Source of the DNA: Phoronis australis
Lineage: Eukaryota > Animalia > Phoronida
Reading direction: 5' to 3'
NCBI GenBank assembly: GCA_002633005.1
Contig: NMRA01000108.1
Location: forward strand, 229,006-293,005
DNA: 64,000 bases
Below the pieces are notes generated by a model that was not told the origin of the DNA, made no database searches, and was given only the letters and a program-made list of their open reading frames with translations. The stretch's first letter is position 1; each line of letters begins with the position of its first letter. Both the position numbers and the translations under genes were made by a program. Of this stretch, positions 1,091-42,894 are shown piece by piece.

Positions 1091-1160
1091 CAAAAATACA
1101 GATGGAAAAGTGCGCTGTAGCAGACCCCAACCAACCTCGAGGGTCTGTGTAGGAGACTAG

Positions 1161-2088
1161 TAAGATACAAGGATAGAGTTCAGTAGCAGTCTCGCGGCTA
1201 GAAACATTTAGCCAAAATCACGTGTTCTCGTTTAAATACACTGCAATATCTCGCGTAATCTAGCGTGGTTTTTCAGCGAGGTCCTAACGTTTCTGAACTC
1301 CACCAAGTGTTGGAAAAGTAGAAACCAAGCCCTTCAGTCGTATGTCTAGGATTTAGAAAGATCTTGGTTAGGCTAAAAAGGCATAATTCATGTAGGCTCT
1401 AGTCTGCGTTTTTTTTTGAGAATTTGATACGGTGGTGCGGTATGCATATAGTTTTACTTTTTTAGAAGTCATAAAATATCCTTTAAAGGGATGCGCGATT
1501 GTCTCCAGCCTCAACGATCCAGTGACTCGGTGGTACTCTGATCGACTGGGGTGATTTTACTCATGGGCTTTGGGGAACTGGCCGCGACCCAATAACCGCA
1601 CACCTTTCAACTAAGAAACAGGTGATTCGTGTTAAGTTGCCTTGCGATGTTGTGACATACGTTTGTGTCGCTTTTGGATACAAAAATTGCAACAACCGTT
1701 GGGTTTGGGCGTTGTTTTTGTTTAAACAATGAGGCGCACTTTTCCAAAAGGTTTAGACGCATACCAGAACCACTTATTCTAATTGCCTTGATTTTGTATA
1801 TATTTTAGGTACGATTACATTTGCAGCCTGAGCTGGTTGTGCAGTATCCGCCCGGATAGCCTGCTCTATGGCAACGTACATTGCAAAAGACTGGACTGCA
1901 GTCTTTGCAGTGCACCTGAAATTGCGGGCATTATTCACTTGTAATGTTCAAATGCACTTCATTCCATACAGCTCTAGCCCTGGAAGCCAACTCCGATGTC
2001 GCGGCCGCTGAGTTTGCGCCGCGCATTCTTGAGAGTTCTTTGCATTCGTTTGTTTGTGTACTTGCTATGGAATTTACTGTCATCAAAA
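1161..2088 (-). repeat. Duplicated block, copy A (paralog of 25321-26135), carrying a defensin-like exon
   Basis: Colinear similarity with 25321-26135 from TAAGATACnAGGATAGAGTTCAGTAGCAGTCTCGCGGCTA to GTACTTGCTATGGAATTTACTG. Confidence 0.9.
1805..1915 (-). pseudogene. CSalpha-beta defensin-like terminal exon A (VHCKDCSPVFCNVRCHRAGYPGGYCTTSSGCKCNRT*), probably frameshifted relative to copy B
   Basis: Acceptor aatttcag|GTG at 1916/1915. Cys pattern C-x4-C-x3-C-x9-C-x5-C-x-C with GxC gamma core, then TAA at 1807-1805. An 11-nt deletion versus copy B removes the RIRR site and changes the entry phase. The upstream signal exon was not found. Confidence 0.7.
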
Positions 2089-3440: not shown

Positions 3441-3515
3441 GTCGCTGAGTGGTGTAGTGGTTAAAGTCGGCGACCAGCAATATTAGGGTCCCGGTTTCGA
3501 CCCCGTCCTCGGTTT
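3441..3515 (+). other. tRNA-derived Pol III cassette inside arm 1 (not a functional tRNA)
   Basis: A box TGGTGTAGTGG and B-box-like GGTTTCGACCCC with tRNA spacing; the acceptor stem does not pair. Confidence 0.6.
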
Positions 3516-4301: not shown

Positions 4302-4376
4302 GTCGCTGCGTGGTGTAGTGGTTAAGTCGGCGACCTCCAAACTCTAGGGTCCCGGGTTCGACTCCGTCCTCGGTTT
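4302..4376 (+). other. tRNA-derived Pol III cassette inside arm 2
   Basis: A box TGGTGTAGTGG and B box GGTTCGACTCC. Confidence 0.65.
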
Positions 4377-8684: not shown

Positions 8685-9494
8685 NNNNNNNNNNNNNNNN
8701 NNNNNNNNNNNNNNNNNNNNNNNNNNNNNNNNNNNNNNNNNNNNNNNNNNNNNNNNNNNNNNNNNNNNNNNNNNNNNNNNNNNNNNNNNNNNNNNNNNNN
8801 NNNNNNNNNNNNNNNNNNNNNNNNNNNNNNNNNNNNNNNNNNNNNNNNNNNNNNNNNNNNNNNNNNNNNNNNNNNNNNNNNNNNNNNNNNNNNNNNNNNN
8901 NNNNNNNNNNNNNNNNNNNNNNNNNNNNNNNNNNNNNNNNNNNNNNNNNNNNNNNNNNNNNNNNNNNNNNNNNNNNNNNNNNNNNNNNNNNNNNNNNNNN
9001 NNNNNNNNNNNNNNNNNNNNNNNNNNNNNNNNNNNNNNNNNNNNNNNNNNNNNNNNNNNNNNNNNNNNNNNNNNNNNNNNNNNNNNNNNNNNNNNNNNNN
9101 NNNNNNNNNNNNNNNNNNNNNNNNNNNNNNNNNNNNNNNNNNNNNNNNNNNNNNNNNNNNNNNNNNNNNNNNNNNNNNNNNNNNNNNNNNNNNNNNNNNN
9201 NNNNNNNNNNNNNNNNNNNNNNNNNNNNNNNNNNNNNNNNNNNNNNNNNNNNNNNNNNNNNNNNNNNNNNNNNNNNNNNNNNNNNNNNNNNNNNNNNNNN
9301 NNNNNNNNNNNNNNNNNNNNNNNNNNNNNNNNNNNNNNNNNNNNNNNNNNNNNNNNNNNNNNNNNNNNNNNNNNNNNNNNNNNNNNNNNNNNNNNNNNNN
9401 NNNNNNNNNNNNNNNNNNNNNNNNNNNNNNNNNNNNNNNNNNNNNNNNNNNNNNNNNNNNNNNNNNNNNNNNNNNNNNNNNNNNNNNNNNNNNN
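8685..9494. other. Assembly gap (N run)
   Basis: Run of N bases. Confidence 1.
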
Positions 9495-20039: not shown

Positions 20040-20331
20040 TTTATCCCACCAGTAGACTGCAAACCAACCGTGAAATACGGCTTCTGTCGTTGCATAGGGC
20101 TTCCACCGTGATATACGGATTGGCTCTAGATCAATTCATTACAATGTTTCTCGGTCAGTATGAGGTATAAAGAGATTATTACATGTTCTCAGTCGTTATC
20201 CCCCATTATCTAGAGCCCTCGTGGATTTTGGAGAATTATCGCCTTCGGTGCTGGCGCCCCTCGGGCGATTATTCTCCAAAATCCAATCGGGCTCTAGAAT
20301 ACGGGGGACAACGACTTCGCCATGTAGTGAT
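20040..20331 (-). repeat. Short-arm variant of the hairpin element (arm 20040-20171 + hairpin 20171-20331)
   Basis: Same palindrome (GATTATTACATG..TCTAGAGCCC..GAGAAT..ATTCTC..GGGCTCTAGA..CATGTAGT). The arm ends CAATGTTTCTCGGTCAGTATGAGGTATAAA and begins TTTATCCCAC. Confidence 0.8.
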
Positions 20332-20825
20332 ATGCCCTCGTTCAAATATTTTTGCATATCACGAATCTCGATAAATATTAACCACTGGTATAAACACGTA
20401 CGTTGTATAACCTATATTTACCCACTGAGTTCTAAAAACCCTTTTATATGTCACACATACCTCTGTATACCTAAGCGTTCAACACATTTTGTTGTTCAGT
20501 AGTTGTGCGTAAAGATGGCTCATGATTCGCTTTCAAATCCTAGATACACAGTTATGTCAAACTGTTCTTCAAATCACTCAAAGTGGCTGTAAACCCACAT
20601 TCCGTCGATGGAATTAAGTTTTGATTGAGCCCACAAGCTGACTTACGATCTTTGACCTTACTTAAAAAAGAAGCGTCAGGGCACGGCGCTAAAAATGACA
20701 TGATACAAGCCAACTTATAATACTCTAAGCTTGGTCGATTCTTTCCATACCCCTACACCACCTCTGAGTTCACTAACGAACACTTTTGATACCTATTTCT
20801 ATACATTGTACGTTTTTCCACAAAC

Positions 20826-23564
20826 ATGTATTTACGAAAACTACTTCATGTTTTTGTTGGAGGATCTGATGTCAATGCCTTCCCAAGCAGTCAGTGTTCA
20901 GTTCAGTGTCCAGCTGTTCACTGCTACAGCCTCGTTTTGAAGATGACCAAAATTCAAACTCTCAGCCGTCGATATTCGTGGGAACAAAAAAGCAGCAACG
21001 AAGAGACAAAAGAACCAGACATTATGAAGAAGATCTGGAATTACAACCTCATTAACATGGACAAACTGCGCTCTGACATAACCACATTCAACTGGACTGA
21101 TATACTTAACAAAAGTGACATAAATGACGCAGTCTCAATATTCACACAGCCACTCTACAACATATTAGATAATAATATCCCATCAACCATGAAAACAATA
21201 AAAAACAAGAACAAACCGTGGTTTAACAATAACATTAAGTCTGAAATAAATAAAAGAAATAAACTGTACAGATCGTTCAGAAGATCAAATAACCCATGCA
21301 CGTTCAAGTGCTACAAAGAACAGTGCAAGAGTGTGGAAGAACTAATTAAAAAGACAAAACAAGACTATAAGATGAAAGTTATCTCCAATATCAAAAATGT
21401 CTCCAAAAATTCTAAGGAATATTGGGATATAGTAAACAAAATTCGAGGACAGGTAAAGCAATCATCATACCCCACCATCCACTCAAAAGAATCCAACTCT
21501 CAGGCGTCATCCAAAGCCGATAAAAGTATCTTATTTCTAGACTACTTCACTGCCAAGAGTCACATTGCACCAACAATAAACTATCCAGAATTCCCAAACA
21601 GAACATTAGAACACCTCTCTTACATAGAAGCCCAACCATCTGAAGTCAGAAAACTACTAGAAAACATTGACGAAAACAAAAACGACGGTACCAATCTCAT
21701 AACCAATAAAATGATCAAGATAATAGCAAGAGAGCTTACACTTCCTCTGACAACATTATACAACAAAATACTACAATCTGGAAAATTTCCTTCGAACTGG
21801 AAGCTTGGCGTTATGATACCAATACACAAAAAGAACTCCAAAACAGACATTGCCAACTATCGCCCCATAACTCTACTTAACACCTTATCCAAAATTTTAG
21901 AAAAAATCATTTCTCAGCACATGTTTGACCACCTCTCTTCACAAAACCTCATATATCGTCGCCAATTTGGATTCATGCCTGGTAACAGCACTGTGTCGCA
22001 ACTTACAGAAATTGTACACGACATCCACCTCCAGTTTGAGCAAGGGTACAACGTGAGATCCGTATTTTTAGACATTGCGTCAGCTTTTGATGTCGTTCCC
22101 CATGACCTGCTTCTACATAAATTACAATCTTACGGTTTCTCAGGCACTCTCCTCTTACTTTTAAAATCATATCTGGAAAATCGAACTTACAAAGTCCGAA
22201 TTGAGGGTGTCTTATCACCTTCATCAACGCCAGGTTTCGTAAATGCTGGAGTACCACAGGGTAGCGTACTAGGCCCCTTACTCTTTTTACTGTACATCAA
22301 TGATCTTCCAGACACGATAAGCTCTAAAACATTCTTATATGCTGATGACACTGCAATATTCCACCCATTCTCAAAAGAGCATCCCCATGACTCCTTACAA
22401 TTGCAAACTGACCTTAACAAACTCTATGACTGGTCTCACAAATGGAAGATGAAATTTAAACCTGAAAAAAGTGTTGATCTTATATTTTCTAAGTCTAATA
22501 ATACTCATTTCCAAACAAATCCAACACTGGAATTATCACTCAATGGGGAAGTTATCCCCAATAAGTTCACGCACAAACATCTTGGCTTGCTACTCGACCA
22601 TAAGCTTACATTTACTCCTCATTGTCGCGAACTCGTTCAAAAAGTACAAAAATTAATTAATCCAATTAGAATTATCTCTCGTCATCTCAACTCCATGCAT
22701 CTTGAAACTCTGTTCAAGTCTTTTGTACTTCCACATCTAGATTACTGTGACATAATCTACCAATCGGCAAACGCTGGCATACTTCTCCAATTAGAAAGAC
22801 TACAATACCAAGCAGCTTTAGCCATAACTGGGGCATACAAAGGGTCCAACACAATCAAGGTTCTAAATAGTCTTCACTGGAGCAAACTAGCAACCCGTCG
22901 TAAACTCCACCTGTCCATGTATACATTCAAAGTCTTAACCAACATAAACAATTACTCTAACAAAATCCTCTTTGACTCCTACAAAAGACCAAGCACGAGA
23001 CCAGGACTCCGGCAAAGCAATATGTATACTATTCCAGCCTCCATCAGCCAAGCCTTCAGAAGATCAGCGATACTAACTTGTATTGACAACTGGAATTCCT
23101 TACCATTCAAAATAAAAGAAAGCACTTCAATCGTCACTCTCAAAAATAACTTTAAAATGCATACCACTACTCCAGACTTGCCAGTCCCATTGACATCATT
23201 CCAACTTCCCCGCAACCATGAAATAACCCTATACAGATCAAGATGTGGTCTATTCCTAAACAACGAGAAATTTAGACATAATTTTAATAATATTTCGGCT
23301 CTGTGTTCCTGTGGAGATACCCAGACATATCCTCATGTTTTCTTTGCTTGTGAGGTATGCAAGGAGGAGAGGGTACAGCTCTTCCAGGCACTCGAACAAT
23401 ACCCCAATGTTTATAAAAAATACTCTGAAATTCCGCAATTGTACAACAAAATTAATTTCTTTCTACATGGATGTCAAGAACTTAACTCAAACGAAAATAT
23501 GGTTTCATTTGAAATAGTATCAGAATTTCTTTATAACATTAAATCTCTTTGTGTGAGTGGATAG
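20826..23564 (+). CDS. LINE ORF2 reverse transcriptase (endonuclease missing; the first ~60 codons are flanking DNA)
   Basis: Motifs KPWF, NYRPITLL, QFGF, FLDIASAFD, GVPQGSVLGP, YADD and HLG; C-terminal CSCG-x6-H-x4-C zinc knuckle. Confidence 0.95.
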   Translation: MYLRKLLHVFVGGSDVNAFPSSQCSVQCPAVHCYSLVLKMTKIQTLSRRYSWEQKSSNEETKEPDIMKKIWNYNLINMDKLRSDITTFNWTDILNKSDINDAVSIFTQPLYNILDNNIPSTMKTIKNKNKPWFNNNIKSEINKRNKLYRSFRRSNNPCTFKCYKEQCKSVEELIKKTKQDYKMKVISNIKNVSKNSKEYWDIVNKIRGQVKQSSYPTIHSKESNSQASSKADKSILFLDYFTAKSHIAPTINYPEFPNRTLEHLSYIEAQPSEVRKLLENIDENKNDGTNLITNKMIKIIARELTLPLTTLYNKILQSGKFPSNWKLGVMIPIHKKNSKTDIANYRPITLLNTLSKILEKIISQHMFDHLSSQNLIYRRQFGFMPGNSTVSQLTEIVHDIHLQFEQGYNVRSVFLDIASAFDVVPHDLLLHKLQSYGFSGTLLLLLKSYLENRTYKVRIEGVLSPSSTPGFVNAGVPQGSVLGPLLFLLYINDLPDTISSKTFLYADDTAIFHPFSKEHPHDSLQLQTDLNKLYDWSHKWKMKFKPEKSVDLIFSKSNNTHFQTNPTLELSLNGEVIPNKFTHKHLGLLLDHKLTFTPHCRELVQKVQKLINPIRIISRHLNSMHLETLFKSFVLPHLDYCDIIYQSANAGILLQLERLQYQAALAITGAYKGSNTIKVLNSLHWSKLATRRKLHLSMYTFKVLTNINNYSNKILFDSYKRPSTRPGLRQSNMYTIPASISQAFRRSAILTCIDNWNSLPFKIKESTSIVTLKNNFKMHTTTPDLPVPLTSFQLPRNHEITLYRSRCGLFLNNEKFRHNFNNISALCSCGDTQTYPHVFFACEVCKEERVQLFQALEQYPNVYKKYSEIPQLYNKINFFLHGCQELNSNENMVSFEIVSEFLYNIKSLCVSG

Positions 23565-23774: not shown

Positions 23775-24618
23775 AAGAGACAAACGAAAGTCGCTTTGAC
23801 AGATCTTTATTTTGCCTTAGTCGTCATTACATTTATGTAGATGTGTAAATTTCAAATGTCATCCATGTCGTTGGCCTAGTACTTTGCTGAAAATCAAGTT
23901 TAAAACGCTAATTAAGTAATTGCAATCGTGATATACTCAAGCACAAAATGAAAGACACTTGTGTTGAGTACAGACTGAGGTAGACTGTAGACTTTTCATA
24001 ATATAAGTCAGAGTTATACATGTACATGTAGTTTCAGTGTCGACATGTCCCAGTGCGAAAAAATCATCATTCACAACTTTTGGAACTGATCGACTACAAA
24101 ACAATTTTCTCGACGTTGCGAAGCCGCCTGGCTCCTACTGGGACATGATGAATGCTGGCTCACGCACAAATTTCGTCGCCCTCTGTCGATTTTCACAGAT
24201 AATGGTCCAGGGCCTTGTAGCTTCCGTCTATGAACACCGGTAGGGGGCAATAAAGTTTTCGCGCGAGCCATTCAGTTATTGATCCCCAGTTGCAGAATCA
24301 AGGTGGTCCTAAAACGTCGGGAAAGTAATTTCGCAGAAGGTTCCAAACACTGTGATTTAAAGTTTTTCCGTATAGGTTATTCACCTGGACGCATCCACAG
24401 TAATCCCTGGCATCTGAAATGTCCCCGTGTTTGTGGGGTTAAAAGAGAATGCCACCCGATTTAATTAGTCTTTTTTACCGTCTTAATCGGTCTATATCCT
24501 CATCGCCTCGCATACGGTAGACCTTACCTTGCCGAGAGGTGTCGCGTTGACCCGGCTATGAGGAAGGTGAGAAACGACGCAGCGACGTCAGTGGTTCAGT
24601 TGCAGTGTGAATACCCCT

Positions 24619-24960
24619 ATGTTGCGGTGCATCGTTTCTGCTTGTGCGAACTATGAAGCTGCGAGGAAAGCGGGTATGTCGTTTTTTTGACTTCCTCGAG
24701 AGCCCGAATTGCTTAGGAAGTGGTTCGCGGTAGTGAAGAATGAAAAGTGCGATGTTAATAGCAAGTATGAGGCCATGAAACAGCTCCGTGTCTGTGGCCG
24801 GCATTTCGTCGACAATGATTTCTCTGACAAATGTCGGCGGCGAAAGAACTATCTATACGTTCCGTTGTCTGTGCATGTACACTGCGCCTCTCAAGTATTT
24901 CTTTATCAGTGTATTCCGGTTCGAACTGATGGCATGTCGAACATTACGATCCACATGTGA
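24619..24960 (+). pseudogene. THAP zinc-finger domain remnant of a DNA transposon
   Basis: MLRCIVSACANYEAARKAGMSFF*LPREPELLRKW...LRVCGRHFVDNDF has the C2CH ligands plus conserved P, W and F. One in-frame TGA at 24688-24690. Confidence 0.85.
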
Positions 24961-25320
24961 AGTCTTCGTCGGATGAACTCTCGTCTAAGTCGGGATTGCG
25001 AGTTGCCATGTTGACTTTTGCTATTTTGCGTTCTGTTTCAAAATGAATTATCCTGACCCTAACCTATGCTTATATAAACTGGAACAAAGTCCGTCTCATT
25101 GGATGCAATTTGTAATCCTTTGAAGTACATGGGTATTCGTGAATGCAAATGTTTTGAGAAGCCAGCAATGAATAAGTCACTGCGTTACCGGTACCGGTAA
25201 TTGACTGGGCATCGAGCCGTGTGAGCGCATTAGTCCCGAACTGTCTTTCGTTATAATGTTGCAGACGCCGTCCTGCTGTTCAATAAGCTGTCACTAGATT
25301 CTGCACCACACGATACGTCG

Positions 25321-26135
25321 TAAGATACTAGGATAGAGTTCAGTAGCAGTCTCGCGGCTATAAAACGTAGCCAAAATCACGTGTTCTCATCTAAAATACA
25401 TTGCAATGTCTCGGGTAATTTCGGGAAGTCGCGGTTTTCCAGCTAGGTCCTGACGTTATTGAACTCAACCCAGTATTGGAAAAGTAGACACCAAGCCCTC
25501 CAGTCGCATGTCTAATATTTGGAAGGATCTTGCTTAGGCTACAAAGGGACAATACCTGCAGGCTCTGGTCTGTGTTTCTGAGAATTGATACGGTGATACG
25601 GTATGCATGTAGTTTTACAGTTTTAGAAGTCACACAACATCCGTTAACGTGATGCGCGATTTTCTACAGTCTCAACGATCCAATTACTCAGTGGTTTTCT
25701 GACCGACCGAGTTAATTGTACTCATGGGGTGTGGGGAGCTGACCGCGACCCAAAACCACACCCTTGCAAATGCCATACAATGTTATTGCATACGTTTGTA
25801 AAGGTTAAGACCCATACCAGAAGCACTTATTCTATTTGCCTTGACTTTGTATATTTTTTACTTACAAATACAAACGCATCTTTTGTAGTTGCATCTTCCG
25901 TTACTATAGTTTCTGTCAATGCAATAGTCCCTGCACTCATGATCGATGCAATCTCTGCGTATTCTTTGCAGTGCACCTAAAATAGAGGGCATTATTCACA
26001 TGTAAAATACAGTTGTACTTCATTCCACACTGCTCTAGCCCTGGAACGCCAACTCCGATCTCACAGCCGCTGAGATTGCGCTTTGTTGCATTGTTTGTTC
26101 TGGTGTGTGTACTTGCTATGGAATTTACTGCCATT
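25321..26135 (-). repeat. Duplicated block, copy B (paralog of 1161-2088)
   Basis: Colinear similarity to copy A, ending at a TTAA at ~26134. Confidence 0.9.
25858..25976 (-). CDS. CSalpha-beta defensin-like terminal exon B ((G)ALQRIRR|DCIDHECRDYCIDRNYSNGRCNYKRCVCICK*)
   Basis: Acceptor ctattttag|GT (phase 1), furin-type RIRR site, C-x4-C-x3-C-x9-C-x4-C-x-C with GxC, and TAA at 25860-25858. The upstream exon was not identified. Confidence 0.75.
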
Positions 26136-26399
26136 AAAGAGGAAATTGCAAGATCCAAACCAATCTGAGCAACAATATGGTCTAAATTCTTGTTTATACT
26201 TATAACTGCTATATTCTTTACATTAACTGAATTATACGTCGCAATAGAAAATTATTTACATATTTAGTGCCGTGGTGTTGTAACGCCATTGTTGTTACGG
26301 AGAACGGAAACGGCGCCATTTTCTTTCGTTACACATCTGTGACGTGCGTAGAGGAACACAAAGGAAACAATTTGTGTTCAAGTGAGTGCAGCAGCGTAG

Positions 26400-28315
26400 A
26401 TGAGGTATACTTTCAAAGGTACAGGGAATAACAGGTAGGCTTTTCAGATGATTCCGACCTTTCGGACGTGGAGGAGGAGGTGACAGATCCCATAGGAACA
26501 ATTTGTGTTCATAGCTTATCTGTAGTGGAGCCGTTATCCCGCAATCTCTCTCACGGCCCTTTCTTCAGTGGTCGAAGACTCAGCCCCAGCCACGGGCAGA
26601 AGGTGCGCAGGAGTTACGACTGGATGTTAGTGACTGGTAATAATATTCTTAATATGTATCCCACAACTGCGAATTATTACTTGGTCTTTTTTAATTCAAA
26701 AGTAGGTGCTTTACCGGTCAGTCCCAGGCGCCCACATCCCCACTGCCACTGGTGAATCGTGTTTCAGCCGTGGATAAATACCAGTTTCAGTGACAAAAAA
26801 CTGGGATTTTTTTGCATTTTAGCAAATCACTCAAAAAGTATTTGGTCTCTGATTATTTGTAGACAGTGGGGCACAGTGGTTTGAGCTCGTGGCTTTCACT
26901 GGCAGACAATTGAGCATTGCACAAAATTGCCTCCTACTTCTCTGAGACTGAGGTCGGTGTTGCAAGTGAGTGAATAAATGTATGCAAAGGAATGAATGAG
27001 AACCACTTTGGAATAATCGACTGTGGAGTGTAAAGAAAAGGATGAAAGAATGGCAATTTTATATTTTAGACTTTCTCACCTCGGTGCTGGGGGGATAACT
27101 TTATAGGTTATAGAACAGGTCACTTCATTTTTGTACTCAAGGGCCAAGTCAACTCGGACCCATATCAATGTACACATGTGGTTCAAAACAGTTTTATTTT
27201 GTAAGGCGATGCTTGAAATGGAAACAACCATTTCATGTCGATGTACATTGACCCAAAGTTGCCATTATTTATAAATAAAATATGGTACTTGGCCTGGGTA
27301 CGAGTCGACTAGGGTAGTAACTGCCTGGTAAAGTTTCTATAGCGTATAGAGAATATACCATTAGATTGGTGATTGCCCATATAGCTTAAGGAGAAGTTTT
27401 AAGAAATGTTCGTTGTAATATTTAAAATATGGGCGACCCTTTGAGTGGCAACACTGCTTTTCAAGTTGGTTTGCCCCATTGGCATTGTCTAGTTTGATTT
27501 ATGGTATGTGGGTGCCGATCGGGTTCAGATTGTGAGAACAGGTCTCACGACTACTTACAAACAGTCTCCTCCATCAATGAATCAGGGCAACTACCTTGTG
27601 TCTTAGAATCAGAATAAGAAATCAAACAACTAATGTCCATTACTATATCCCTGGCCATGATTTACCACTGCCCTGGGTGTAGCACTACTCATAAGTATGA
27701 AAAGTAAATATCTTTACTATATATGATCAATTTGTATGAAAAATAAGTAGGTTGTGATGTTCCAAAGTTTGTTTTTGGAAACAAATTTGATTTTTGTTCT
27801 GTTGTAAACAGGTCGCTAAACAATCAATTTTCTTAAAACCTGAAGTCGTATGCAGCCTCCTCAATTCAAAATTTTGATGTTTACTGAAGCAAAGTATTAT
27901 TGTTGACACATCTTGCAGGTGCATCTGTGGCAACTGTCAGACAACCCCAGTCGTTGAAGAAAGAGTATGTTGTCAAGAGGTCGACTAGGTTGTTGCAAAA
28001 CTTGATGAAGAAATGAAGCGTGACAACTTATACAGAAAAAATGACATGAATTGTAAAGCTTGGTAGTTTTAAACCTGTATGCATTAATCGTGATGTTTTG
28101 GAGATGCCTGGCTGCCATACAAAGGTCACTATCCTGATGGCTATGACGGACCCTTGGATAAAAGGATGCGACACGTGGCTTACAGACAGTTCAAAAGATG
28201 GGTACACGGTCACTTAGGACGAACTGTCAGTGGTGTCCTTCCAACATGCGCAGTAGCCTGCATCTACCCTCCGCCAGGATATGAGGAGGACTTTAAATTC
28301 CATGGATTTTCTTAA
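26400..28315 (+). pseudogene. Spliced, decayed P2X7-C-terminal-like (nanor-like) gene typical of KolobokP DNA transposons
   Basis: Exon ending LRLDVSDW (TG|GTAATA at 26636/7) joins ttgcag|G at 27919: WCICGNCQ...ERVCCQEV...FKPVCINRDVL...RHVAYRQFKRWVHGHLGR..VLPTCAVACI.PPP...FHGF*. It contains stops and frameshifts. Confidence 0.85.
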
Positions 28316-29414
28316 CAGTTTCATCCATTTATTAATGTCAGCAGTTGTCTTATCCCTGGAATATCAACTCCTGCACATGACCTATGTATTCTATTATTAA
28401 AACTTGAGACTCGGGGACTAGCCTTATGTAATTCGGATGAGTTTCAAAAAGTTGTTGTGGTGACAAATTTCATTGAGAGAACAAACATCTTAACAAACGA
28501 ATGCAACCGCAGCGCAACCTCGGGGGCATGAAATTGAAGTTGGCATTCATGAATGGACTTCTATAGTTTCAGAGTAGTAAATAATTGACACAGTGAGTAG
28601 CATTTATTGATACTAATCAATCTGGTTACTTATAATGACATGGTCATAACAAATGTAGTTTAACTAGGACTACATTGTGAACCTCTAAACTCAACATCAG
28701 TTTAACTTGTGGTTTACCTAGGTAAATAGAGGCATTGGTCTCAGTAGAGTCCAGATTGTGTGCTTGAAGCGATCACATTGAACAGTATGGCTGCTACATA
28801 AAAATTAAGTTTTGAATCAGGGCCATTTTCTGAGGTTGAGACTGAATCTCCTGCCCTTTTCTTATACAGTAGAACTCTCTAAATTGGTAGTGCTTCAGTG
28901 GGAACTTTAGAAAGGTTAGCATTAATTCCGCAGTAACGCCTCAAAATAACTCTAACTTTGATGAAATATGTCAGTCTCACTGGATCCAAGTGAGCGAGTT
29001 CTACTGTAATTCAATGAGATATCAGCTAACACGACACAGCAACCATTGAATCTTACCCCAAAAGCTCCAGTATGCAATAGCTTTAGATGTCCATGACATG
29101 GTATGAAAACATAAAAAGTATGCACATGTGTAGGAAGTGGGACATCTGCAGGGAGTGCTTGTACCACTCACTCAAAAATTCCCAAGAAAATGTTCTAATT
29201 CTGTGCAAGTGATTATTCTGTCGTACAATTTGGATGATATTATCGCACGAAGACTGACGAACCAAACAGCTACCTTTTCATCCCCACTTAAGAAAATCTT
29301 CCTATACCGATACACTGTATGGGACAGCTACAGTTTAGTGCAAATCAAATGTACCTAAAAAAGCTATGCCACAATATTTATAGTCATTGTATTGAAGAAA
29401 CATTGAAATATTTC

Positions 29415-29567
29415 TAGGGGCAGATCCAGGACTTTGATGTGGGGGCCAGGGCAGAGTACTAACCAGGATTTTGCCCATCTGGATATTCGCATCCCCGAAG
29501 TGTCAAATGGAATCTGGGAGAATTTTAGGAGGTGGGCATGGCCCCCTCTCTAAATCCTCCGGCATTG
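29415..29567. mobile_element. Short MITE, same family as 47079-47225 (opposite orientation)
   Basis: GGCAGATCCAGG...GGGGCCAGGGCAGA.TA.TA.CCAGGATTTTGCC matches the reverse complement of 47160-47225. Confidence 0.75.
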
Positions 29568-29836
29568 GTTTCAGTGTACGAACTTAGTATATCACCGGGT
29601 TTATCCATACAAACGGGACAGCCAAATGCCACACACAAAAGCTTTTCACAATTTCCAGTGCTGGCACTGTAAACACTCTGACATTGCTATCTGTACCGCT
29701 ATCTAAAATTTAATCTAAAACATCGGTTGTGACTGTCAAATATGTGACGGAAAGAAATTCAAGTGCTGTACATTGACAAAGCAGCCAGTCTGACTTTATC
29801 TGGATAACGGATCCTATCTGTGCCACGGCATCCTCC

Positions 29837-30300
29837 TTGAACACATCTGTGAGGTATAAAACAATTTATTGTCTTAAGAGTTATATAGAAATAGTTGATA
29901 TCCCACGTGTTTTTATCCAGTCTCTGACTCGATTGCGATGTTCAAATCATTCGTTACTAATGGAAAGAGGTCGCCACACAAATATTCCCTATGAAAACAG
30001 GTTGTGTGCGTTATGTAGTTCGGGATGTGTAGAAGACGAATACCACGTTGTGTTAGTTTATAGCGCGTACCAAGATCTTCGGGTTAAGTACTTAAGTGAT
30101 CGTTTTTGTCATTCTCCCACGACTTCTAAATTTGAATCTCTCATGAGAACTCCGGATATCCTACTTATTAAATTCGTCCATCACGCTTTCAAACGTCACA
30201 ATGTATTGTCCAATTTGAAACGTGACACCTAACAATGTTCTGTCTTGTCAGTACATGATATACTTTGGCCTATGGCCATGTGTATATGTCTCAATAAATC
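29837..30300 (+). mobile_element. 3' fragment of a non-LTR retrotransposon (second family)
   Basis: LTRLRCSNHSLLMERGRH..IPYENRLCALC...VEDEYHVVL is a typical ORF2 C-terminal zinc-knuckle region; AATAAA at ~30293. Confidence 0.85.
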
Positions 30301-30609
30301 ACTTAACAAATTAAAGGAAATTTAAACATTTAGTCAATATACTCATTATTATATCCAAATGAAATTGTGTTGTTTCAAAGGCGGCAAGATATTCAGTTGA
30401 TTTGACAACGATGAGCTGTCGTTTTGCTCTATTCTGGGCATGTTGGACACCAAAACGTGACCAATAAGATCCAGGATAGTATATCGACTTGTGTAACAGC
30501 GTGTGTGTGTAAATTTATTAGTCTTTGAAGCGTACGTAGTAATATGTTCGTCGAGTAATGAAATTTTAGATTAATGTTTTAAGATGAAGTAACAATTATA
30601 GTGTCATAC

Positions 30610-30823
30610 CATAGGCGGATGAAGGACGACCGAAGGAACCCGAGGACACACCCCACGGGAGACTAAAAACGCCGCCAGCATAGGTTTCTCGGCGTTATGC
30701 ACCTATTTTCCTTTAAATTGCGTTTGCCCCCCCCCCTTCAGAGACCGCTTGGAATGCGCGCGGACCTTTGCCTTTCTGCATGGGTGGTTGGGCCCCTTTT
30801 ACGACATCCTAGATCCACCACAG
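30610..30823. mobile_element. GC-rich MITE with imperfect TIRs
   Basis: CATAGGCGGAT...CCTAGATCCACCACAG ends resemble the other CAGTGGCGGAT MITEs. Confidence 0.55.
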
Positions 30824-31554
30824 AAGACACGAAGTAAATACCCATTAGTGAGTCAAAAAATAGGCCTGAATCTTTGTAAGTCAGGTTTTGCGAATTCAAT
30901 GCACTTTTGAAATTCAGTGATCAAGGTGATACTGTGGACATTGGGCGACTACTCATTACTTCTAATTTTACTACTACAGCACTGGCTGTCACTTGTCTTA
31001 TAAATTGTCTTTGGTGTTTTATGGCTACGATGCTTGCTGATAGTTCTACTGTACACACACTTACTTGTCTTCGTTGGAAACAAAAAAGGAAATGAAACGG
31101 AGGGAGAGGGGTTATATAAATGACTAGTTAAGCCATTAGGGAAACTGAATAAATTCAACAATTTAAAAGATTTCTTCTCTATAAAGACAAAAAGGATTCC
31201 TCACACTTGCTTTGGATAATTTAGTCAGGCTCGGAGGGGGAAGGAATGCGACGTTGGAATAATACGAGCACTCCGTAAAAAATGTCAGAAACATAAAACA
31301 TGTTGCATGTTGGAAAGGGTGCGTGTTCCCGGGGGGTGGGTGTCCCGTGAAGGAAGGACTAGGGCACGTGGGACTGAACGGAGTTGTACCAAGAGAACAG
31401 ATCAGTTACAGCATCTGTGCAGTTAGTGAAGCATACAACTTGACTACCGCAGTGTTGAGACCTCCACTGATAACTTCCAAAATTTTCTTCGTTGCCGTTA
31501 GCGTACTGTACAGTAGGTCAATAAAAGAATTCCAGTACAATGGTCTTGTCTAGT

Positions 31555-31970
31555 GTATAAGTCAAATTATTTTTAACAGAATCATTGTTGACATTGTTTA
31601 GTACTTTGAAAGTAATGGTTGTATTGTGAAGATTGCGTCGAGTAGACAGTTTGGGTCACTTGAGATTATTCAACACTATTGGATCCCACGTAAGCTCCAG
31701 TTATGAATAAGGCAGCTTGATACTGTGATTTCTCCAAATGCTGAAGTGCACAATGTTGGCAGACTGATATATAATATCACAATAATTGATGTATGGAAGT
31801 ATAAAGGATTTGAATAGGACTTCTGAATGTGTAAAATTCAGATGACGAGAGAGGAGCTTAAGTGGATTAATTACTATCTGAATTTTTTGTACGAGTGGTG
31901 TGAAGGAAATTTTTAAATCTAGCAGAATACCAAGATGTCTGTGCGAGTGTTTTCTAGGAATGAAGGTCAT
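31555..31970 (-). mobile_element. Old fragment of the 21011-23774 LINE family
   Basis: HRHLGILLDLKISFTP..LVQKIQIVINPLKLLSRHLN...LFKSFILPYINYCDIIYQSAN matches the intact ORF. Confidence 0.88.
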
Positions 31971-32724
31971 AGCTCAGCACATTTTGTCATTGGATAAGGG
32001 GATCTGGCAACCACAAGTTTCGGCAATGGGAATTGCTCAACACCCAAGTTGCAGCCCCTTGGTTTTTACTGTTCTGCACTCCTACCATGCAACCCTCTGG
32101 GACAGGGTCAACACCAATTAGCACCCATCCGATTTTTACCTGTTTAGCACTCCTCCCATGTCCCCCCTTCCGCTGGAGCCTGGGAACAACTGCCCCATGA
32201 AACCCAAAAGCAATCACTAAAATTATGTAGTCCACGGAGGTATAAAATGTAATTAGGAACGGTAATTTGCCTCATTCAATACCCAAACATGAATCAAAAC
32301 CATGGCTTTTGAAGGGAACTTCCAAGAGAATGAAAGCAAAACTCTTACTGTCTATTACACTTCAATAATGACTAAAACACACATTTTCATTCTCAGTTGA
32401 TAGTAAGTGAGTGTAAATATACGTATTTCACCTATTTTTAATCGCACAGTAATTTCATTGCATTTCAAACGTCATTAACATATGAATTTATCGGTGTTAA
32501 CGTGGTTCGGACTCACGCCGCTAAATTAGTTCGGCTTATTCGCAGCTTGGGGAGCCAGTTTTTTTACCGATAACCATTAGACTGGGATCCCAGAGCTTTT
32601 TTGGGCATGAAAAGGTAACCAATTTCCTTTGGTACCGCAGTGGCCTATGGGTATCCTCGTGCTTGGATATGGCCGTCCGGCAGGTTCGCTCTGGTGGGTG
32701 TGGTCAGGTGAGCCAAGAGAATGG

Positions 32725-33660
32725 CACTCAAAAATTGAGCTAGATCAACTTTTCTAGCAACCACTTCAAACTGCCTTCGATGCCTACTACCTAATCCACT
32801 GCATCAAAATTGGTCACTGCCAGACACTTTCAGAGGTGGGGATTATCAGGCAGATGACTTTAAACAAGGTACAAAATTGAGCTAGATCAATCCAAGAGGT
32901 AACTACATGAAACCAGTTGCAAAATATTCACCACGTATCACGAATGAACACTGCCAGACAAATCTAGTGATGGGTTATAGCCACGCCAGACACGCCCAAA
33001 TGCCCGAGTTGAGTTACATCAACCCACCAGGTAACAGTTTGAAACCAATTGCACGATGTTCAGCATCACTGTACATGGCACAACAGTTAGATGACAGACA
33101 ATTTCAGTGGTGGGGTGTCCCTGCCAGACGATTATCAAAACGGGTTAAAACTTGAGCTAGATCAACCCAAGAGGCAACCGCTTGAAACCAGTTGCAAAAT
33201 AGTCACCGTAAGTCCAGGTATCACGAATAAGCACCGGCAGACAAATCTATTGGTGGGTTAGCCCTGCCAGACACGCCCAAATACCTGAGATTGAGCTAGA
33301 TCAACCCACTAGGTAACCGTTTGAAACCAACTGCACGATGCTCAGCATTACTGCACATGGTGTAACAGTAAGATGCTAGACAATTTCAGTGGTGCGGTGC
33401 CCCTGCCAGACGACTAAAGAAAGGACTCAAAATTGAGGTAAATCAACCCAAGAGGTAACTGCATGAAACCAGTTGGAAATTGTTTTACGTAAGCCCATGT
33501 ATCATGAATAAACATTGCGAGACAAGCCACACACGACCAAATATCTGAGTTGGGCCAGATTTATCCGCCAGGTAACCGTTTGAAACAGTTTGTATAATGT
33601 CGAGCAACATTCTGCATGCAACAAAAGGTACTTTACAGACACTTTCAGCCGCGGGGCAGT
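32725..33660. repeat. Degenerate ~140-bp tandem satellite with A/B dimer structure (~7 monomers)
   Basis: Anchor TTGAGCTAGATCAA(-like) at ~32735, 32877, 33009, 33152, 33291, 33433 and 33550. Confidence 0.88.
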
Positions 33661-33744
33661 AGCATGCAGAGATTCGGTCGATGCAGGGGCGAATTTTTAT
33701 TGGACGCCTCTCTCTCAACTCAAATGCATAATATTCTATTCAGG

Positions 33745-34325
33745 CCTGTAGCCAGCATTGAGCGGGGGGTGGTTCGAATTTCAAGAACGATGGACCTGTG
33801 ATATTTTGCAAACGTCGACACTGCAGCTCAATTACGGGGAAGGGAAATCTGTATACACAACGATGACTCTCAGCTCTATGTTCATCAGATGAGACGGAAT
33901 TTGCAATACCAGAAACGAGGATGCTGTGGCGGTTGCTCGCAAAGAACGGGACACAAATTCGGATGTAATGTGGTCCAGAAAGAGAATGTTCTCGCATTAT
34001 CTCCGGCCAAAGTTTCAAATCAGCCATGCTTAAATGGGTGATTACACATCATTGCATACTCAGACGGAAATACTAAGTTTAGTCGGCGAATGACTAAATT
34101 GGCAAAATTGTTTTTCTGCTTGTATTTTAGCGTGTTACTTAAGTTGCTTACATCTCTGGAAATGGGAACAGCCCACTATTTAGAAGGTTCACTACTCCAA
34201 GAATCACTGTTACGAAGGTTTACTACTTCGAAGATTCACTACTCCGAAGATTCACTACTCCGAAGATTCACTACTCCGAAGATTCACTACTACTCCAAAA
34301 ATATCCAAACTTTCAAACTCAGATG
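33745..34325 (+). repeat. Interspersed repeat, copy 1 (copy 2 at 39545-40340), ending in a 16-bp GAAGATTCACTACTCC array
   Basis: Shares AAGGGAAATCTGTATACACAA.GATGACTCTCAGCT, GTCCAGAAAGAGAA.GTTCTCG and GACGGAAATACT; the 16-mer array lies at 34183-34295. Confidence 0.88.
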
Positions 34326-37300
34326 TGATTTTCGACCTTTTACATGCAAAAATAAACGATCTTTTGGTTTTAGATGCACCTATACCGAAAGCAACGCCGG
34401 GCACTACAGCACTTTGTTTGGATTTCATGTAGACAGTGACCACCGTTCCCAGCTAACAAGCACAACTTAGGAAACGGTGGACAGATTTCACTGTGCATGA
34501 GAAATTGCCCGCATGTCTTAAAATGAGTACGCACTTGCATTTAAAATGATCTGAAGTAGAATACTGATGAATTATACATAGACCATGATACATTCATCAA
34601 ATCCCCATGTCAAGATCGCATTGCAGTGCGACGCACACAGCCGCGTCGAAAATACATTGTGGCGAATGGCAAGATGGCGGAGTAGAACCTCCTATTGTGC
34701 TATACTGTTCAGCTGAAGACATGCTTGGCACGCCAGACGCTTCACCTTCGTGAGGCCGGCTCAGGTAATTGTATCTTCGTTATAAGCACTGATAAATCCA
34801 CACCAGCAAAAATAGACGCCCAGCCGGTTGCACAAAAGCAAAGACAATTAACTCAAGGCTCCCTACTGGAAGTAGGCTCTTATTGGTCCGAATGGTCATC
34901 ATGTAGTTTTGAAGCGCCACATTTCGGTGGCTGAAAGACCTGCAGGAATATACATGGGTACCTAAAAAGTAATATATTGGTTACCAAACTACTTTCCTTG
35001 GTGTCTTTGATTGGAGTCCAAAATGGGGTCAAGCAGTGTACATGTATACACCTACGTGTACATTCAAAGGAACACGGAAGGAAACGTTTAAAGCTTCATT
35101 TCACCACTATTTAGCTATCAATACTCGTCTTCTTAACCGAAGCTTTATGGGGTTTTAAAACATGACCAAGTTCGTCTGATTTTGAATTGTGAACTCAATC
35201 CAAAGACAATGCATGCATGCATCGTTTTTGAATCCGCATTTTTAAGTTTGTCAAACCGCAACAAACTATGAAACGTTCTTGAGTAGTTGATGGTTTCCAT
35301 ATTTTAGTTGGTTGCGGAAATAGAATTCCATCGCGGTTAGAAATATTCCAAGACCGATTTCCTTAGAGTAAACGTCCTAATTCTACTTTCTTTTAGCCAG
35401 CTAAACCGTAGGACGAAATGCAGTTTAAAATATGAAGTGTTTCAAAATTTTTTCCACGTCACAAGCTCGACCAGACTCACGGTCCGCTGGAGCAAGAAAC
35501 TCTTTAAAGGCGAAACTTCGCTGGATGTCGTCAGGCATTACAGCGACTGCACGTGATTACTTCAACTTAATTTGGGGAACTGGGCTTTAAGCACTGACAG
35601 TTTTTGTTCTCACCTCCGTCTCCGCCATCTACCGGCAACGCCTGGAGGCAGCCCATAGCCAGCATCAATACAATGAATACCGCGACACACTTCATGACTT
35701 CTAGTATTCTGTAATACAACGTCAGATCATGTTACCGGGAAACAAGTACATACAAGGAGAAACAAGAAAATGCGATTGAAACAAAATGGCAATAAGCGTT
35801 TGCCAATGTTTTTCTCCTCGATAGATCAATTACCCATCCGCATTATCAATTACAAATTGAAAACCATGTGGATACACAGTCTTTTCCTCTAAAGTTAAAG
35901 AATCAAGTATCTGCACGGGTCTATTTGAGAATTGTCTAACTCCATCTTGTGAATTGGGGTTTTGAAAAATGTCTTGTAACTTAACAACCGTCAGTTAGCA
36001 GAAAATGCGTGTCTTTCGTACCATAAGCTTTCATATTGAGTTGCCATGTGACGACAAAACAAGTCAAAGTAATTTTTTCTTGTAAACTGCAAGCTAGGGC
36101 TTTGTTTCTTTACTTAAGAAATTCGACTTAAGTTAAAATTAAATGGAAAACATTTCTCAAATATTCTCGCAGTGAAGTTGATAGATCACATGTCCAGGCT
36201 AATAGCACTGAAACTTCAAGACCAAGCCTGACAAAGGGTTAGGTATATCATTGAGTTCAAACCTCAAACAATCAGGACTGTGAGTTGATAAAAGCAAAGA
36301 CGTCAAATACAGTACCATTGATAAATTTTGAAGAGTTTTCGTTGCTTGAACTGTTCATTGGACTGTAAATACTGGCGCTTCTAACATCCGCTTAGGGATA
36401 CCGAAGACGAAGAACTATGAGCTCATTAGTCTGCCTTTTAAAAGTGACAGCTCACCTCCAGGTGTGAAAATACGAGAAAAATTGAACGCACTTTCAGCTG
36501 TATCATTCAAGTGCTCTGGCCTTGAAGTGACTTTTCCACTGAGTCGTCGCAGTGTCACTTGTGTTCTAAATTAGAACACGTGTAATCAATCTTTGATCAC
36601 ACAGAGTACACAAATGAACATTATGGCGTTCTGAGACTAGAATGCCAAATGTTCACCTCCAGTAATGTTAGTGTTACTTACACGCTTGAATGTATTACAT
36701 CACTAAAACTTAGTAGGGAAATTTGAAGGGCACATTTTCTTTCGAAGACCACTTACGATGAACAACTCAGACGCATTTTTACGTACATTTATTTTCTTAC
36801 TTTTTTGCCAGTGTAGTGAAATGTACCTTACGGGAGGAAATTGCAATCTGTAAATTCAACAAGAAGAACAATAGTGTCACTCAATTTGTGAATAGTTGTA
36901 TAATTGTTGATTGTGACTCATAGGCCACGTAGAATCATAAAGTCTTAACTGCATATCTGAACACGGTGTGTTCTGACGGGACGCACCACTCCAAGAACAT
37001 TGGGCGTTCAACGACCGCCATTCAAATTCTTTAACGCGCATGCGCTTGCGAAATCGTTTTCTTGTTATCCGCCAGCGGGATCATTTTGCTAGTGTTTGCA
37101 AGCATCTTTTTGTGAATATTATAGGCCCATCCAATGTTCGCTGGGTTTTAATAATTGATGCATCTACAGTTTAGACTAAATTTTATCGGTAAGTATTGCA
37201 AACGGTGATCTTACTTCTTGATTTAGTGGCTTTTCAAAATTTCACTATCACATCATGATATTGCGTGATTACATTGGCCATTGCCATTGGCAATGCTACT

Positions 37301-39544: not shown

Positions 39545-40655
39545 CCAGTAGCCAGCATTGCGTGAGCATGGTTCGCATTTCTAGAACGGCGGGCTTTGCA
39601 AACGTCGGCACTGTGGAGTTTTCGGTAAAGCCCTTGACGCAGCTTAATTAGGGGTAAACATGCGCGCTCCTAGCCTTTAATATGGGGGGGTCGAATTTCT
39701 GGCGATGTGGACCTTTTGCTGACAAAAAAGCGGCAGGACTAAAAAAATAAAACGGGTACCACCTTCAGAACTGTGACCCATGCGTATGAGCCTTTTTAGT
39801 GGACTTTTGGCTCGTTTTCTCGGTCTTTTTTTCTCTACTTGGCCAAATGGGGGGCTCGTTCGATCCCCCTCCGAGCCCCCCCCCCCCTCCCGTGTGCGCG
39901 CATGGTAAGGGAAATCTGTATACACAATGATGACTCTCAGCTATATGTTCATGATAATAAGACGGAATTCGTAATACCAGAAACATGATGCTGTGACGGT
40001 TGCTTGCAAAGAACGTTTCTCAAATTCGAATGCAATGTTGTCCAGAAAGAGAACGTTCTCGTGTTACCTCCTGCCAAACTTTCAAAAAAGCGTGCTTAAA
40101 TGAGTGATTAAAAGTCATTACATTCTCGGACGGAAATACTTTAGTAGTCGGAGAATGATTCGACAAAATTTTTATCTGGTTGTATTTTTACGTGTCACTT
40201 AAGTTGTAAGGCTTACATCGCAGGAAACGGGAACAGCTTACTATTCCGAGGGTTCACTACTCCGAACGTTCACTGTTCCGAAGATTCACTACTTCGAAGG
40301 TTCACTACTCCGAAAATATCTAAAATTTCGGACTCAGGAGTAATTTTATACGCAGCCCTGACCCGTGCCCCAGATGCTGTCCTGAGAATGAGTTGTTAGT
40401 TAGATTCATTGAGCTGCAAAACAATGTAATCAATGTTTTTAAAATTACTATTCAACTTCTGTACACTCTAAAAATGGTCACTATACTTAATTCATGTCAG
40501 TTCAGATTCATTAGTAGACAATCAGAGTAATGAATTGTCGGTGTTCTGGTTTCAGAATTGTGAACATTCTAAGTGGTTTCGAAGGTAACGAACCTTCGGA
40601 GGAGTGAATCTTCGGAGTAGTGGACAATCGGAGTTGTGAACCTTCGGAATAGTGA
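39545..40655 (+). repeat. Interspersed repeat, copy 2, with a nested MITE (39660-39904) and inverted 16-bp arrays (40240-40315, 40590-40655)
   Basis: Similar to 33745-34325. The nested insert is bounded by CATGCGCGC...GCGCGCATG. The right-hand array is the reverse complement (TTCGGAGTAGTG). Confidence 0.8.
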
Positions 40656-41418
40656 CATGTAACTTTGGAAATCTTTTCCGTCAACTTTGTGGCTGGTGTG
40701 AAGTCTGCGACGGAGGCTGTGCACAATTAACACCGATTGACAAGAGAAGACTTTCTTCATTGACCAAAGATTTTATTAAGTCTAGATTTACTTTCCCCCA
40801 TGCTCGTCGGGGTTTTTTCAGTGCAACGAAATTAACTGTCTGTTTTTTGAGCAACGACGGAGAAATGCCTATAGTGAACTTACCGTTGGTGTGTACTGAA
40901 TTAAATGAAGAGGCACGCACACATGAGTACACGCATGCGTTTCAATTCGCCAATCCACAATCAAAGTGGACTCTGGATGAACAACATATTTGACGATTAC
41001 TTTCAATTGGGAATTTGAAAATGCCTGCACATAACGGTACTATTCTATCAAGTATACACTGTACCAAAATAGAAGACAATAAATCTATTTTCTGCTGTTT
41101 TGTTTCTTGGTCGATTTTAAGGCATTTACACCGCACGACTTTTAGAGAGCTCTCTCGCTGCTATGTACCGGTAGCTTAGCTAGGTATAGACATTTACATG
41201 TAGTCTCCCTTGTAACTCTGTGATGTAGCCACCACGATTGCTCAATGCCGATGGACAGCACAAAGCCTCCTCTAATTGTCTGCACGATCTACGCTAACAC
41301 CACCCGGGCGAAGTTGTCCACTAGGTACGGCTCGATGATTACGTGAAGCGCTTCAGAATCAGAAGCAAATTCAAAATTATTACTGACTTAGTTATGACTT
41401 AGTTAGTCGGAATTCTAT

Positions 41419-41850
41419 ATGTCTAAAGTGGAAAAAAAGGATAGCATTGTGATTGGTGGTATTCCTATCTATGTACGTTATGTAGATGATATTTTTGTTT
41501 ATTGTGCCTTTGATGACTTGTTATCAGTACGTGATGAACTTGAGCGTCACTCAGTATTGAAGTTTACCCACGAGCTTCTTGTAAATGACAAGATTCCGTT
41601 TTTGGACGTTCTTGTGAACGATTCTCCATCTGAATTTTCTACATCCGTTTACCAAAAGCCTACTGATAAAGGTTTCTGTTTCAACGCCAAAAGTGAGTGC
41701 CCTGAGCGGTATAAGGTAGCCGGCCGTTGTGGTCAACTTCCTAAAGAGAGCGCATTCGGTGTCGTCCAACTGGCTATTGTTCAATCAAGAGGTAGATCGC
41801 AAACACTGGTGAATAATGGGTATACCAATGCTCTTGAGAATGAAACAAAT
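41419..41850 (+). mobile_element. Penelope-like reverse transcriptase remnant
   Basis: YVRYVDDIF, LKFTHE, IPFLDVLV and TSVYQKPT motifs; the frame then shifts. Confidence 0.88.
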
Positions 41851-42894
41851 ATGTTTCGAAATATCGTGTGTCTTTTAATTGTGTCGCAAGGTCAGTTACT
41901 GTATCTATATTCAGTTGAGAGTAGAGTTTTGTTCCGAAAGTACGAACGTAACGGAATAAAGACTGTGAACAATGAAAAGTGTCGTTTAACAAATTCTGTA
42001 TAACTTAGTGTTGTAGATAGCAGAACCAGTAGCTGAAACAATTTTGTTGTTGTTGCTGTCCATCTATATCCTATCTTTTTAACAGATAGGCTGGGGCTGG
42101 ACCTTTTCCGCGGGGGGGTTGATCAAACCCCCCGGGACTTTTTTGGAAATTTTCTGAAAGTCTTCATGAGGGCGTTACGCCACGCTCATTCGATACAATT
42201 CGTAATTTTCCGAACCACGTTATAAAAAGTCTTTTCGAAGCTAACCTTCAGAAACGACTTTCACTCCAAATCTGAACTGTTACTCACTAGCCTAAAACCA
42301 TGCAACCATATGAAGTGAACATAAAAATTTTACCTGCACAATTACCACTGTTGTGTACGTCGTAAATTGGAACAATCTCAAGACGATGCGGGTATTTAAA
42401 GGTTTTTAAAGCCCTCCACTTTTTGATTGGCTGATACTTGTAACATCAATCGTAGTCTATTGACAGATTGGTTTACCAATCATGAATCATATACCTTGAA
42501 CAATTGAACATTTTCTCGACGTCATGTTTTTCACCACACCGTAAAGTTCAAACTTGTCACACAAGCGAGAACGCAGCTATTGTCACACACATGCGCTTAA
42601 CTGCATTTTTATGTACATGCCTGCAGTAGCTGAGCTAAATAAGTTGGTCAGTACCTTATTAGTCCGTCAGACATATGGCATGTAGGCCCCTATTGAAGTG
42701 ACGAGAATTTGGCGTATAATTTTGTTTTATTGTTTATTATCGATGTCTAATACATTATACTTTCAGAAACTGCAGTTTTACATGATGTCACCCTTGAGCA
42801 ATTTTATTCAGGGGACTTAATAATCGAAGATGGCCGCCATAGAAATGGCGAAATCTACTTTAGCTAATATCGTCGCTACCAGATGAGACACAGA

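Follow-up and report, generated by a model that had tools for sequence, protein, structure and literature searches.

The 64,000-nucleotide stretch of Phoronis australis DNA analyzed here (the window) harbors on its minus strand a gene with three coding exons (82, 111 and 11 nt) for a six-cysteine peptide with a predicted signal sequence, together with a diverged duplicate of its middle exon and flanking intron sequence (Table 1). The middle exon is hereafter referred to as exon B and the duplicate as copy A. We regard the gene structure and its six-Cys product as close to certain.

Table 1. Features of the gene and of its paralog in the window, with positions counted from the first letter
Feature	Position	Strand	Description
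Exon 1 (first coding exon)	35614..35708	-	13 nt 5' UTR, ATG at 35695, 27 codons plus 1 nt; from hydrophobicity scan and RNA joins
Intron 1	25977..35613	-	9637 nt, phase 1, GT-AG
Exon B (middle coding exon)	25866..25976	-	111 nt, phase 1 at both ends
Intron 2 donor GTAAGT	25860..25865	-	only GT-AG placement among 12; 0 of 6 reads run past it
Intron 2	23887..25865	-	1979 nt, phase 1
Last exon	23790..23886	-	finishes the Ser codon, then Lys, Tyr, TAG (23878-23876)
Copy A exon	1813..1915	-	paralogous, all six Cys, donor degraded to GTACCT
Duplicated block around copy A	1160..2087	-	about 930 nt; homologous to 25320-26138

The joining of exon B to exon 1 was seen in two RNA runs (X6 and X7), in which 8 of 10 and 7 of 13 exon B reads, respectively (15 reads in all), depart from the genomic sequence at 25978, the 30-letter consensus of the departing portions being that of 35616-35645 in exon 1. 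Among nine placements of this junction, a single one (35614 to 25976) obeys the GT-AG rule, in phase 1, with a donor of G/GTGAGA at exon 1 and an acceptor of CTATTTTAG at exon B, the TAG of which lies at 25979-25977. An earlier note, made from the letters of this DNA, had named this acceptor, predicted a phase-1 entry and placed a signal-peptide exon beyond 26135, all of which is borne out by these reads; exon 1, with its start at 35695, had first been flagged as a candidate by a scan for hydrophobic starts preceding a donor. The same note had named the use of another frame at this acceptor, or a lack of expression, as grounds for abandoning its reading, and the RNA is found to be both expressed and joined in phase 1. 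Upstream of exon 1 there may be another exon of 5' UTR, as suggested by an acceptor AG at 35710-35709. In the last exon, AATAAA (23811-23806) precedes a U-rich tract, and the 3' end of this exon would lie near 23790. RNA depth at exon B was limited to 25859-25978 in X6 and X7, and the first mate of every exon B read lay on the plus strand, which in the usual stranded libraries denotes RNA from the minus strand. Accordingly, a hydrophobic frame on the plus strand was ruled out, as was the phase-0 frame of exon B because the RNA joins in phase 1. Expression was low, at about 0.9 exon reads per million in both X6 and X7, with no reads on exon B in RNA run X5 and no contigs on exon B in run X8, the raw runs having been sampled at 18-19% each. 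DNA contigs from X1 (25372-25949, one difference from the assembly) and X2 (25440-25999, one difference, intronic) match the assembly, thus excluding a consensus error, with the proviso that the assembly may itself derive from these runs, which are hence non-independent.

Repeats were found both within the introns and around the gene. Intron 1 contains a tandem array with a period of 139/282 nt (32873-33525). In intron 2 lie a plus-strand fragment of a high-copy THAP-domain repeat (24600-25250; Pfam THAP E 8e-6), with related copies abundant in RNA and DNA runs, and, inside the block shared with copy A, 30 nt (25370-25400) that also occur in a high-copy, transcribed repeat, which drew some 75-115 RNA reads per run, for the most part in the opposite orientation. 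An open frame of 924 aa (20790-23564, plus strand), which encodes a reverse transcriptase domain (RVT_1 E 6e-35), marks a LINE-type element; this lies on the strand opposite the defensin-like gene and ends at a distance of some 230 nt from that gene's 3' end. Two more plus-strand open frames (41407-42003 and 29777-30232), which by eye we take to resemble a Penelope-type reverse transcriptase and a LINE tail, had no Pfam match at E 0.05. An approximately 860-nt repeat family with an internal palindrome of about 190 nt occurs at 2872-4470 (a tandem pair, 95% alike), 20127-20326 and 44354-45214 (an inverted copy), and related repeats with 16-bp tandem arrays occupy 33837-34291 and 39904-40655, the second with an inverted array at 40577-40655. 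The window also carries an intronless-looking plus-strand ORF (58078-58824) with a C-terminal Tctex-1 domain (Pfam E 1e-25), for which one of 317 candidates matched at E 1e-20, a slug protein with 47% identity, the product of the ORF itself being absent from the collection.

At the 3' end of exon B, the RNA data alter the reading of the coding sequence. The earlier note had translated 25974-25858 of the minus strand, faithfully to the letters, and had taken the result to end in a seventh cysteine and a TAA stop at 25860-25858. The codon of this supposed cysteine consists of the last exonic T and the GT of the donor T/GTAAGT, a full donor consensus, and the corresponding CGT of copy A likewise consists of C and the GT of the donor C/GTACCT. 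As the hexamer by itself is no rarity, occurring 17 times on the minus strand of the window, RNA was needed to decide on the use of this donor. All six reads reaching the 3' end of exon B leave the genomic sequence there and none continues into intron 2, with coverage stopping at 25859 and depth zero at 25780-25858 in X6 and X7. The consensus of the loose ends of four X7 reads matches 23850-23879 in the last exon; the other two reads, from X6, fell below the reporting threshold, so that the continuation is seen in the four X7 reads. By the GT-AG rule, we infer that the exact cut lies after 25866, with the acceptor before 23886. The two mismatches implied by this cut fall near the ends of the read alignments and are absent from the mismatch list of the tool; the aligner ran on to 25859 because the start of the last exon resembles that of intron 2 (5 of 7 positions). 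Indirectly, the identity classes of the reads agree with this cut in that 8 of 23 reads (3 of 10 in X6 and 5 of 13 in X7, vs. 2 and 4 reads at the 3' junction) have 95-99% identity where 6 would be expected, which fits two mismatches per junction read. Two junctions that would keep the cysteine, GT-AA after 25862 and TA-AG after 25861, have no mismatches to the loose ends and yet are non-canonical; we discarded them, given that 4-5 nt away the GT-AG rule is satisfied by a donor of full consensus and an acceptor rich in pyrimidines. In the spliced frame, Ser takes the place of the supposed Cys, followed by Lys, Tyr and the stop in the last exon, the TAA being intronic. It is almost certain that the seventh cysteine arose artefactually, from a reading that ran beyond the splice site. 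With a six-Cys spliced product, the CpG decay or dimerising free thiol proposed earlier for the extra residue becomes unnecessary, and both were rejected in view of the splice donor (CpG observed/expected in the window, 0.88). For the exon-only reading of Cys peptides in general, this serves as a caution that T/GT or C/GT at an exon end mimics Cys or Arg.

A seven-Cys peptide might still be made from an isoform retaining intron 2, which would end in Cys-Lys-stop and yield 31 aa able to dimerise (computed mass of the free-thiol form about 3756 Da, unglycosylated average), but we deem this highly improbable. In A and B alike, the donor is followed by a TAA in frame, two sense X7 reads (probably one fragment) lie within intron 2 at approximately 25570-25779, and the donor is covered by six reads, perhaps as few as three fragments, which allow a read-through of up to 39% if independent and more otherwise. 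On the other hand, none of these six reads passes the donor, which has the full consensus, depth is zero over 25780-25858, a scan of the minus strand yielded neither AATAAA nor ATTAAA before 24465, and intronic reads are expected anyway from pre-mRNA.

The spliced product is a precursor of 67 aa. Its signal peptide, encoded in exon 1, is likely cut after residue 19, as judged by the (-3,-1) heuristic rather than by SignalP, and is followed by a short, acidic Gly/Asp pro segment. Exon B contributes the end of the propeptide, the site R-I-R-R, the core C-X4-C-X3-C-X9-C-X4-C-X-C with its G-R-C gamma-core, and an N-Y-S sequon. R-I-R-R stands before the Cys core and is of the convertase type, in line with the R-x-R-R site described earlier; together with the signal-like exon joined in RNA, this predicted basic site conforms to the secreted precursors of invertebrate defensins. 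The predicted mature peptide after R-I-R-R comprises 32 aa, in place of the 31 proposed from the unspliced frame, with six Cys at positions 2, 7, 11, 21, 26 and 28, a net charge of +1, a pI of 7.8 and a computed mass of about 3903 Da with three disulfides (unglycosylated average). The acidic N-terminal and basic C-terminal halves that the earlier note had pointed out, unlike copy A, are evident from the net charges (-3 and +4 in B vs. +1 and +1 in A).

That exon B is a CS-alpha-beta exon, defensin-like as first proposed from the letters, is supported by Cys spacing, gamma-core and predicted fold. CS-alpha-beta peptides carry C-X3-C on the helix and C-X-C on a strand (PMC5308243, PMC5116183), and the six-Cys peptide of exon B has both elements. 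In a six-frame scan, the spacing was found at two loci in the window, exon B and copy A (1900-1817), and at none in 30 windows simulated with matching dinucleotide composition, which puts it beyond chance. The gamma-core G-X-C at the fourth Cys reads G-R-C in B and G-Y-C in A. Single-sequence modeling of 36 exon residues with AlphaFold2 (pLDDT 78, pTM 0.46; two of five models near 78) predicted a helix (11-20) followed by a two-strand sheet (26-29 and 32-35), a fold which, along with the spacing, would imply disulfide pairing of 1-4, 2-5 and 3-6. The profile search that the earlier note had recommended against defensin and toxin families did match exon B to Defensin-like (PF24552; E 9e-5, 22.8 bits vs. 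a cut-off of 27), Gamma-thionin (PF00304; E 3.5e-4, 21.2 vs. 25.1 bits) and Toxin_2 (PF00451; E 7e-4, 20.3 vs. 25.1 bits), and copy A to PF01097 (14.2 vs. 20.4 bits), but no Pfam score of either A or B rose above the curated cut-offs, those for defensins included. Invertebrate defensins as a group have no unifying sequence criterion, according to PMC5116183. The best sequence matches in the PDB were plant and insect defensins (E 0.002-0.04), with tomato TPP3 and engineered Anopheles defensins on top. With the E limit at 10, Foldseek returned 147 matches, of which the best had E 0.15 and none fell below 0.001; those listed were scorpion short toxins, defensins and mimics on that scaffold, all CS-alpha-beta peptides, with BmBKTx1, navitoxin, tamapin and scyllatoxin as the top structural matches. 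When Foldseek's own 147 chains were re-aligned with VIA-align (137 aligned), BmBKTx1 (PDB 1r1g) ranked first (Z 5.3, rmsd 1.0, 30 aligned). The nearest ESM Atlas clusters were Toxin_2 (0.85 for B, with 189 of 256 features, and 0.82 for A), scores that, being under 0.9, count as leads only. With separate exon peptides rather than the spliced precursor as queries, phmmer found no match at E 0.001 for the 38-aa exon B peptide among 1.84 billion representative proteins, and a word-index search of proteins of 22-72 aa gave no candidates for exon B (40 aa including four intronic residues) or exon 1 (41 aa including intronic read-through). Searches of the literature, made without the source organism, brought up no description of the peptide, an absence that cannot show it to be unpublished. 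Taken together, assignment to the CS-alpha-beta superfamily is well supported, and the fold leaves the choice between defensin and toxin unsettled.

Copy A affords a comparison within the family. By blastn, its block is 82% identical to B over 458 nt and 74% over 355 nt. The introns agree at 568 of 664 positions (85.5%), in contrast to 21 of 66 positions (31.8%) in the non-Cys core codons (Fisher p 4e-20 vs. introns); 2 of 22 non-Cys residues are identical, while all six Cys codons are, the latter being, by our own estimate, unremarkable by itself at the intron rate. These values, as well as pN of 0.78 and pS of 0.34 (about 15 synonymous sites), come from a Cys-anchored core alignment in which a single gap was set to maximise identity; at such divergence, counting methods give rough values. 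Between the acceptor and the first core Cys, copy A is 11 nt shorter than B, which puts it out of phase with a phase-1 upstream exon since its Cys frame needs phase 0; an X2 DNA contig has the junction letters of copy A exactly. A second X2 contig (record 3, 1264 nt), which lies on 25715-25762 and 25957-26024, is distinct from A as well as from B, and its match to B extends six bases further into the propeptide. From these match limits, rather than from a full sequence, we surmise that there is a third copy, C, beyond the window, which apparently keeps the propeptide segment absent from A, in which case the loss in copy A looks derived. Copy A is therefore in our judgment quite probably a pseudogene or an orphan exon, albeit it may be rescued by an AG downstream whose pyrimidine tract is poor, or served by an unseen phase-0 first exon. 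Local alignment scores for copies of exon 1 and the last exon near A were 31-48, vs. 33-54 for shuffled sequence, the last exon of A being expected just left of the window. An assembly gap of 810 N (8685-9494), beside an AC microsatellite, could hide the first exon of copy A.

Both the gene layout and the evolutionary pattern have precedents. Camponotus defensin-1 consists of three exons (64, 229 and 13 bp); its propeptide is interrupted by a phase-1 intron, and the second intron closely follows C-X-C, leaving a 3-residue tail (PMC3415428). Hymenopteran defensin-1 (Camponotus floridanus, Apis mellifera; PMC3415428) has a three-exon plan like that found here; it differs in that its second intron is in phase 2 rather than phase 1, while the phoronid gene has a much shorter propeptide (about 16 aa) and n-loop (4 aa) and a weakly cationic peptide. 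The likeness is one of layout, without sequence support for orthology. Scorpion alpha-KTx toxins (BmBKTx1, PF00451) and Centruroides defensin-1 (6bi5) are similar in size, short n-loop and predicted fold, and scorpion short toxins also have a phase-1 intron close to the signal peptide (PMC5308243); unlike them, the phoronid gene has an R-I-R-R propeptide and a second coding intron, lacks K-C-X-N and scores below the Pfam cut-offs. Conotoxins (PMC3823881) and mussel MgCRP-I (PMC4558851) likewise have duplicated genes whose loops between the cysteines are hypervariable and whose Cys codons are conserved, with frameshifts in some family members; they differ in Cys framework (C-C-CC-C-C in MgCRP-I), and here just two copies are comparable. 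Mytilins and related bivalve CS-alpha-beta peptides (PMC7168163) resemble it in the CS-alpha-beta core, the multi-exon gene and a C-terminal extension. Mytilins have eight Cys and a long anionic C-terminal extension without an N-terminal propeptide, vs. six Cys, a 3-residue tail and a propeptide ahead of the core here, and the mytilin/myticin definition does not apply.

As to function, we favor, at a probability of roughly 0.55, the reading that this six-Cys CS-alpha-beta peptide is a secreted, putative host-defence effector. Change in the inter-Cys loops has far outpaced that in the introns, a pattern pointing to an arms race against an external target. Besides this divergence between A and B, the presence of the gamma-core G-X-C, the absence of the K-C-X-N toxin signature (R-C-N-Y instead) and the defensin-1-like gene layout speak for host defence. 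Several points tell against it: 1) the net charge of +1 is low for an antimicrobial peptide; 2) scorpion short toxins come closest both in structure and by language model, and share the short n-loop; 3) venoms, too, can combine hypervariable loops with introns that stay conserved; 4) no Pfam score reaches its curated cut-off; 5) synthetic MgCRP-I peptides of this pattern lacked antimicrobial as well as toxic activity (PMC4558851); 6) expression is low. If the peptide does act in host defence, its precursor would enter the secretory pathway and shed its signal (cut near residue 19) and propeptide, a convertase would cleave after R-I-R-R, three disulfides would pin the helix onto the two-strand sheet, and the basic C-terminal hairpin may bind a microbial surface target, e.g. 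lipid II or a fungal lipid. Such binding is favored over bulk membrane lysis because the net charge is only +1.

It is possible, if unlikely, that the same peptide is an ion-channel ligand instead, a venom or mucus toxin that would dock the face of its beta-sheet on a channel as scorpion short K+-channel toxins do. The four-residue n-loop (C1-X4-C2 in A and B), the 32-aa size and the scorpion/Toxin_2 side of the best structural matches and ESM Atlas clusters argue for such a ligand, and the signal-pro-RR-mature layout, hypervariable loops and six of six identical Cys codons recall conotoxins (PMC3823881). However, the K-C4-X-N signature of alpha-KTx toxins, as defined in PMC5004176 and PMC5116183, is found neither in B (R-C-N-Y) nor in A (Y-C-T-T), notwithstanding that a partial signature can still block channels (PMC5004176). 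Moreover, the structural scores are weak (best Foldseek E 0.15; Z at most 5.3) and near those of defensins, length alone pulls short peptides toward short toxins, and the ESM Atlas scores stay under 0.9.

Another reading, to which we give still less credence, is that of an endogenous or inter-individual signal (a receptor ligand, or a gamete or settlement cue) or an enzyme inhibitor, in which case recognition, and not killing, would lie behind the rapid change of the loops. Evolution is usually slow in endogenous hormones, and the 2 of 22 non-Cys residues that A and B have in common are at odds with this. The convertase-type precursor, the near-neutral, bipolar charge and the low expression would nevertheless suit a signal or inhibitor, and a weak Pfam match to the pollen-coat SLR1-BP family (E 0.033) shows the scaffold serving recognition elsewhere. 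Furthermore, synthetic MgCRP-I peptides, which have the same hypervariable pattern, displayed neither antimicrobial nor toxic activity (PMC4558851).

In addition, we entertain the rather improbable idea that this non-arthropod invertebrate has built, in the style of conotoxins, a library of hypervariable peptides based on a CS-alpha-beta scaffold with short loops. The library would converge on scorpion K+-channel toxins, and may be enlarged through duplicated exons that share one signal exon, instead of through copies of the entire gene. Such growth is considered because duplication is seen for nothing but the middle exon (phase 1-1) and its flanks, no second signal exon or last exon having been found in the window.

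In the host-defence reading that we prefer, as in its alternatives, the locus holds an expressed gene for a CS-alpha-beta peptide without a relative in the protein collections searched, the coding structure of which is now mapped. The 85% intron vs. 32% loop identity marks its family as one under strong diversifying pressure, and thus as a lead for antimicrobial or channel-ligand screening.
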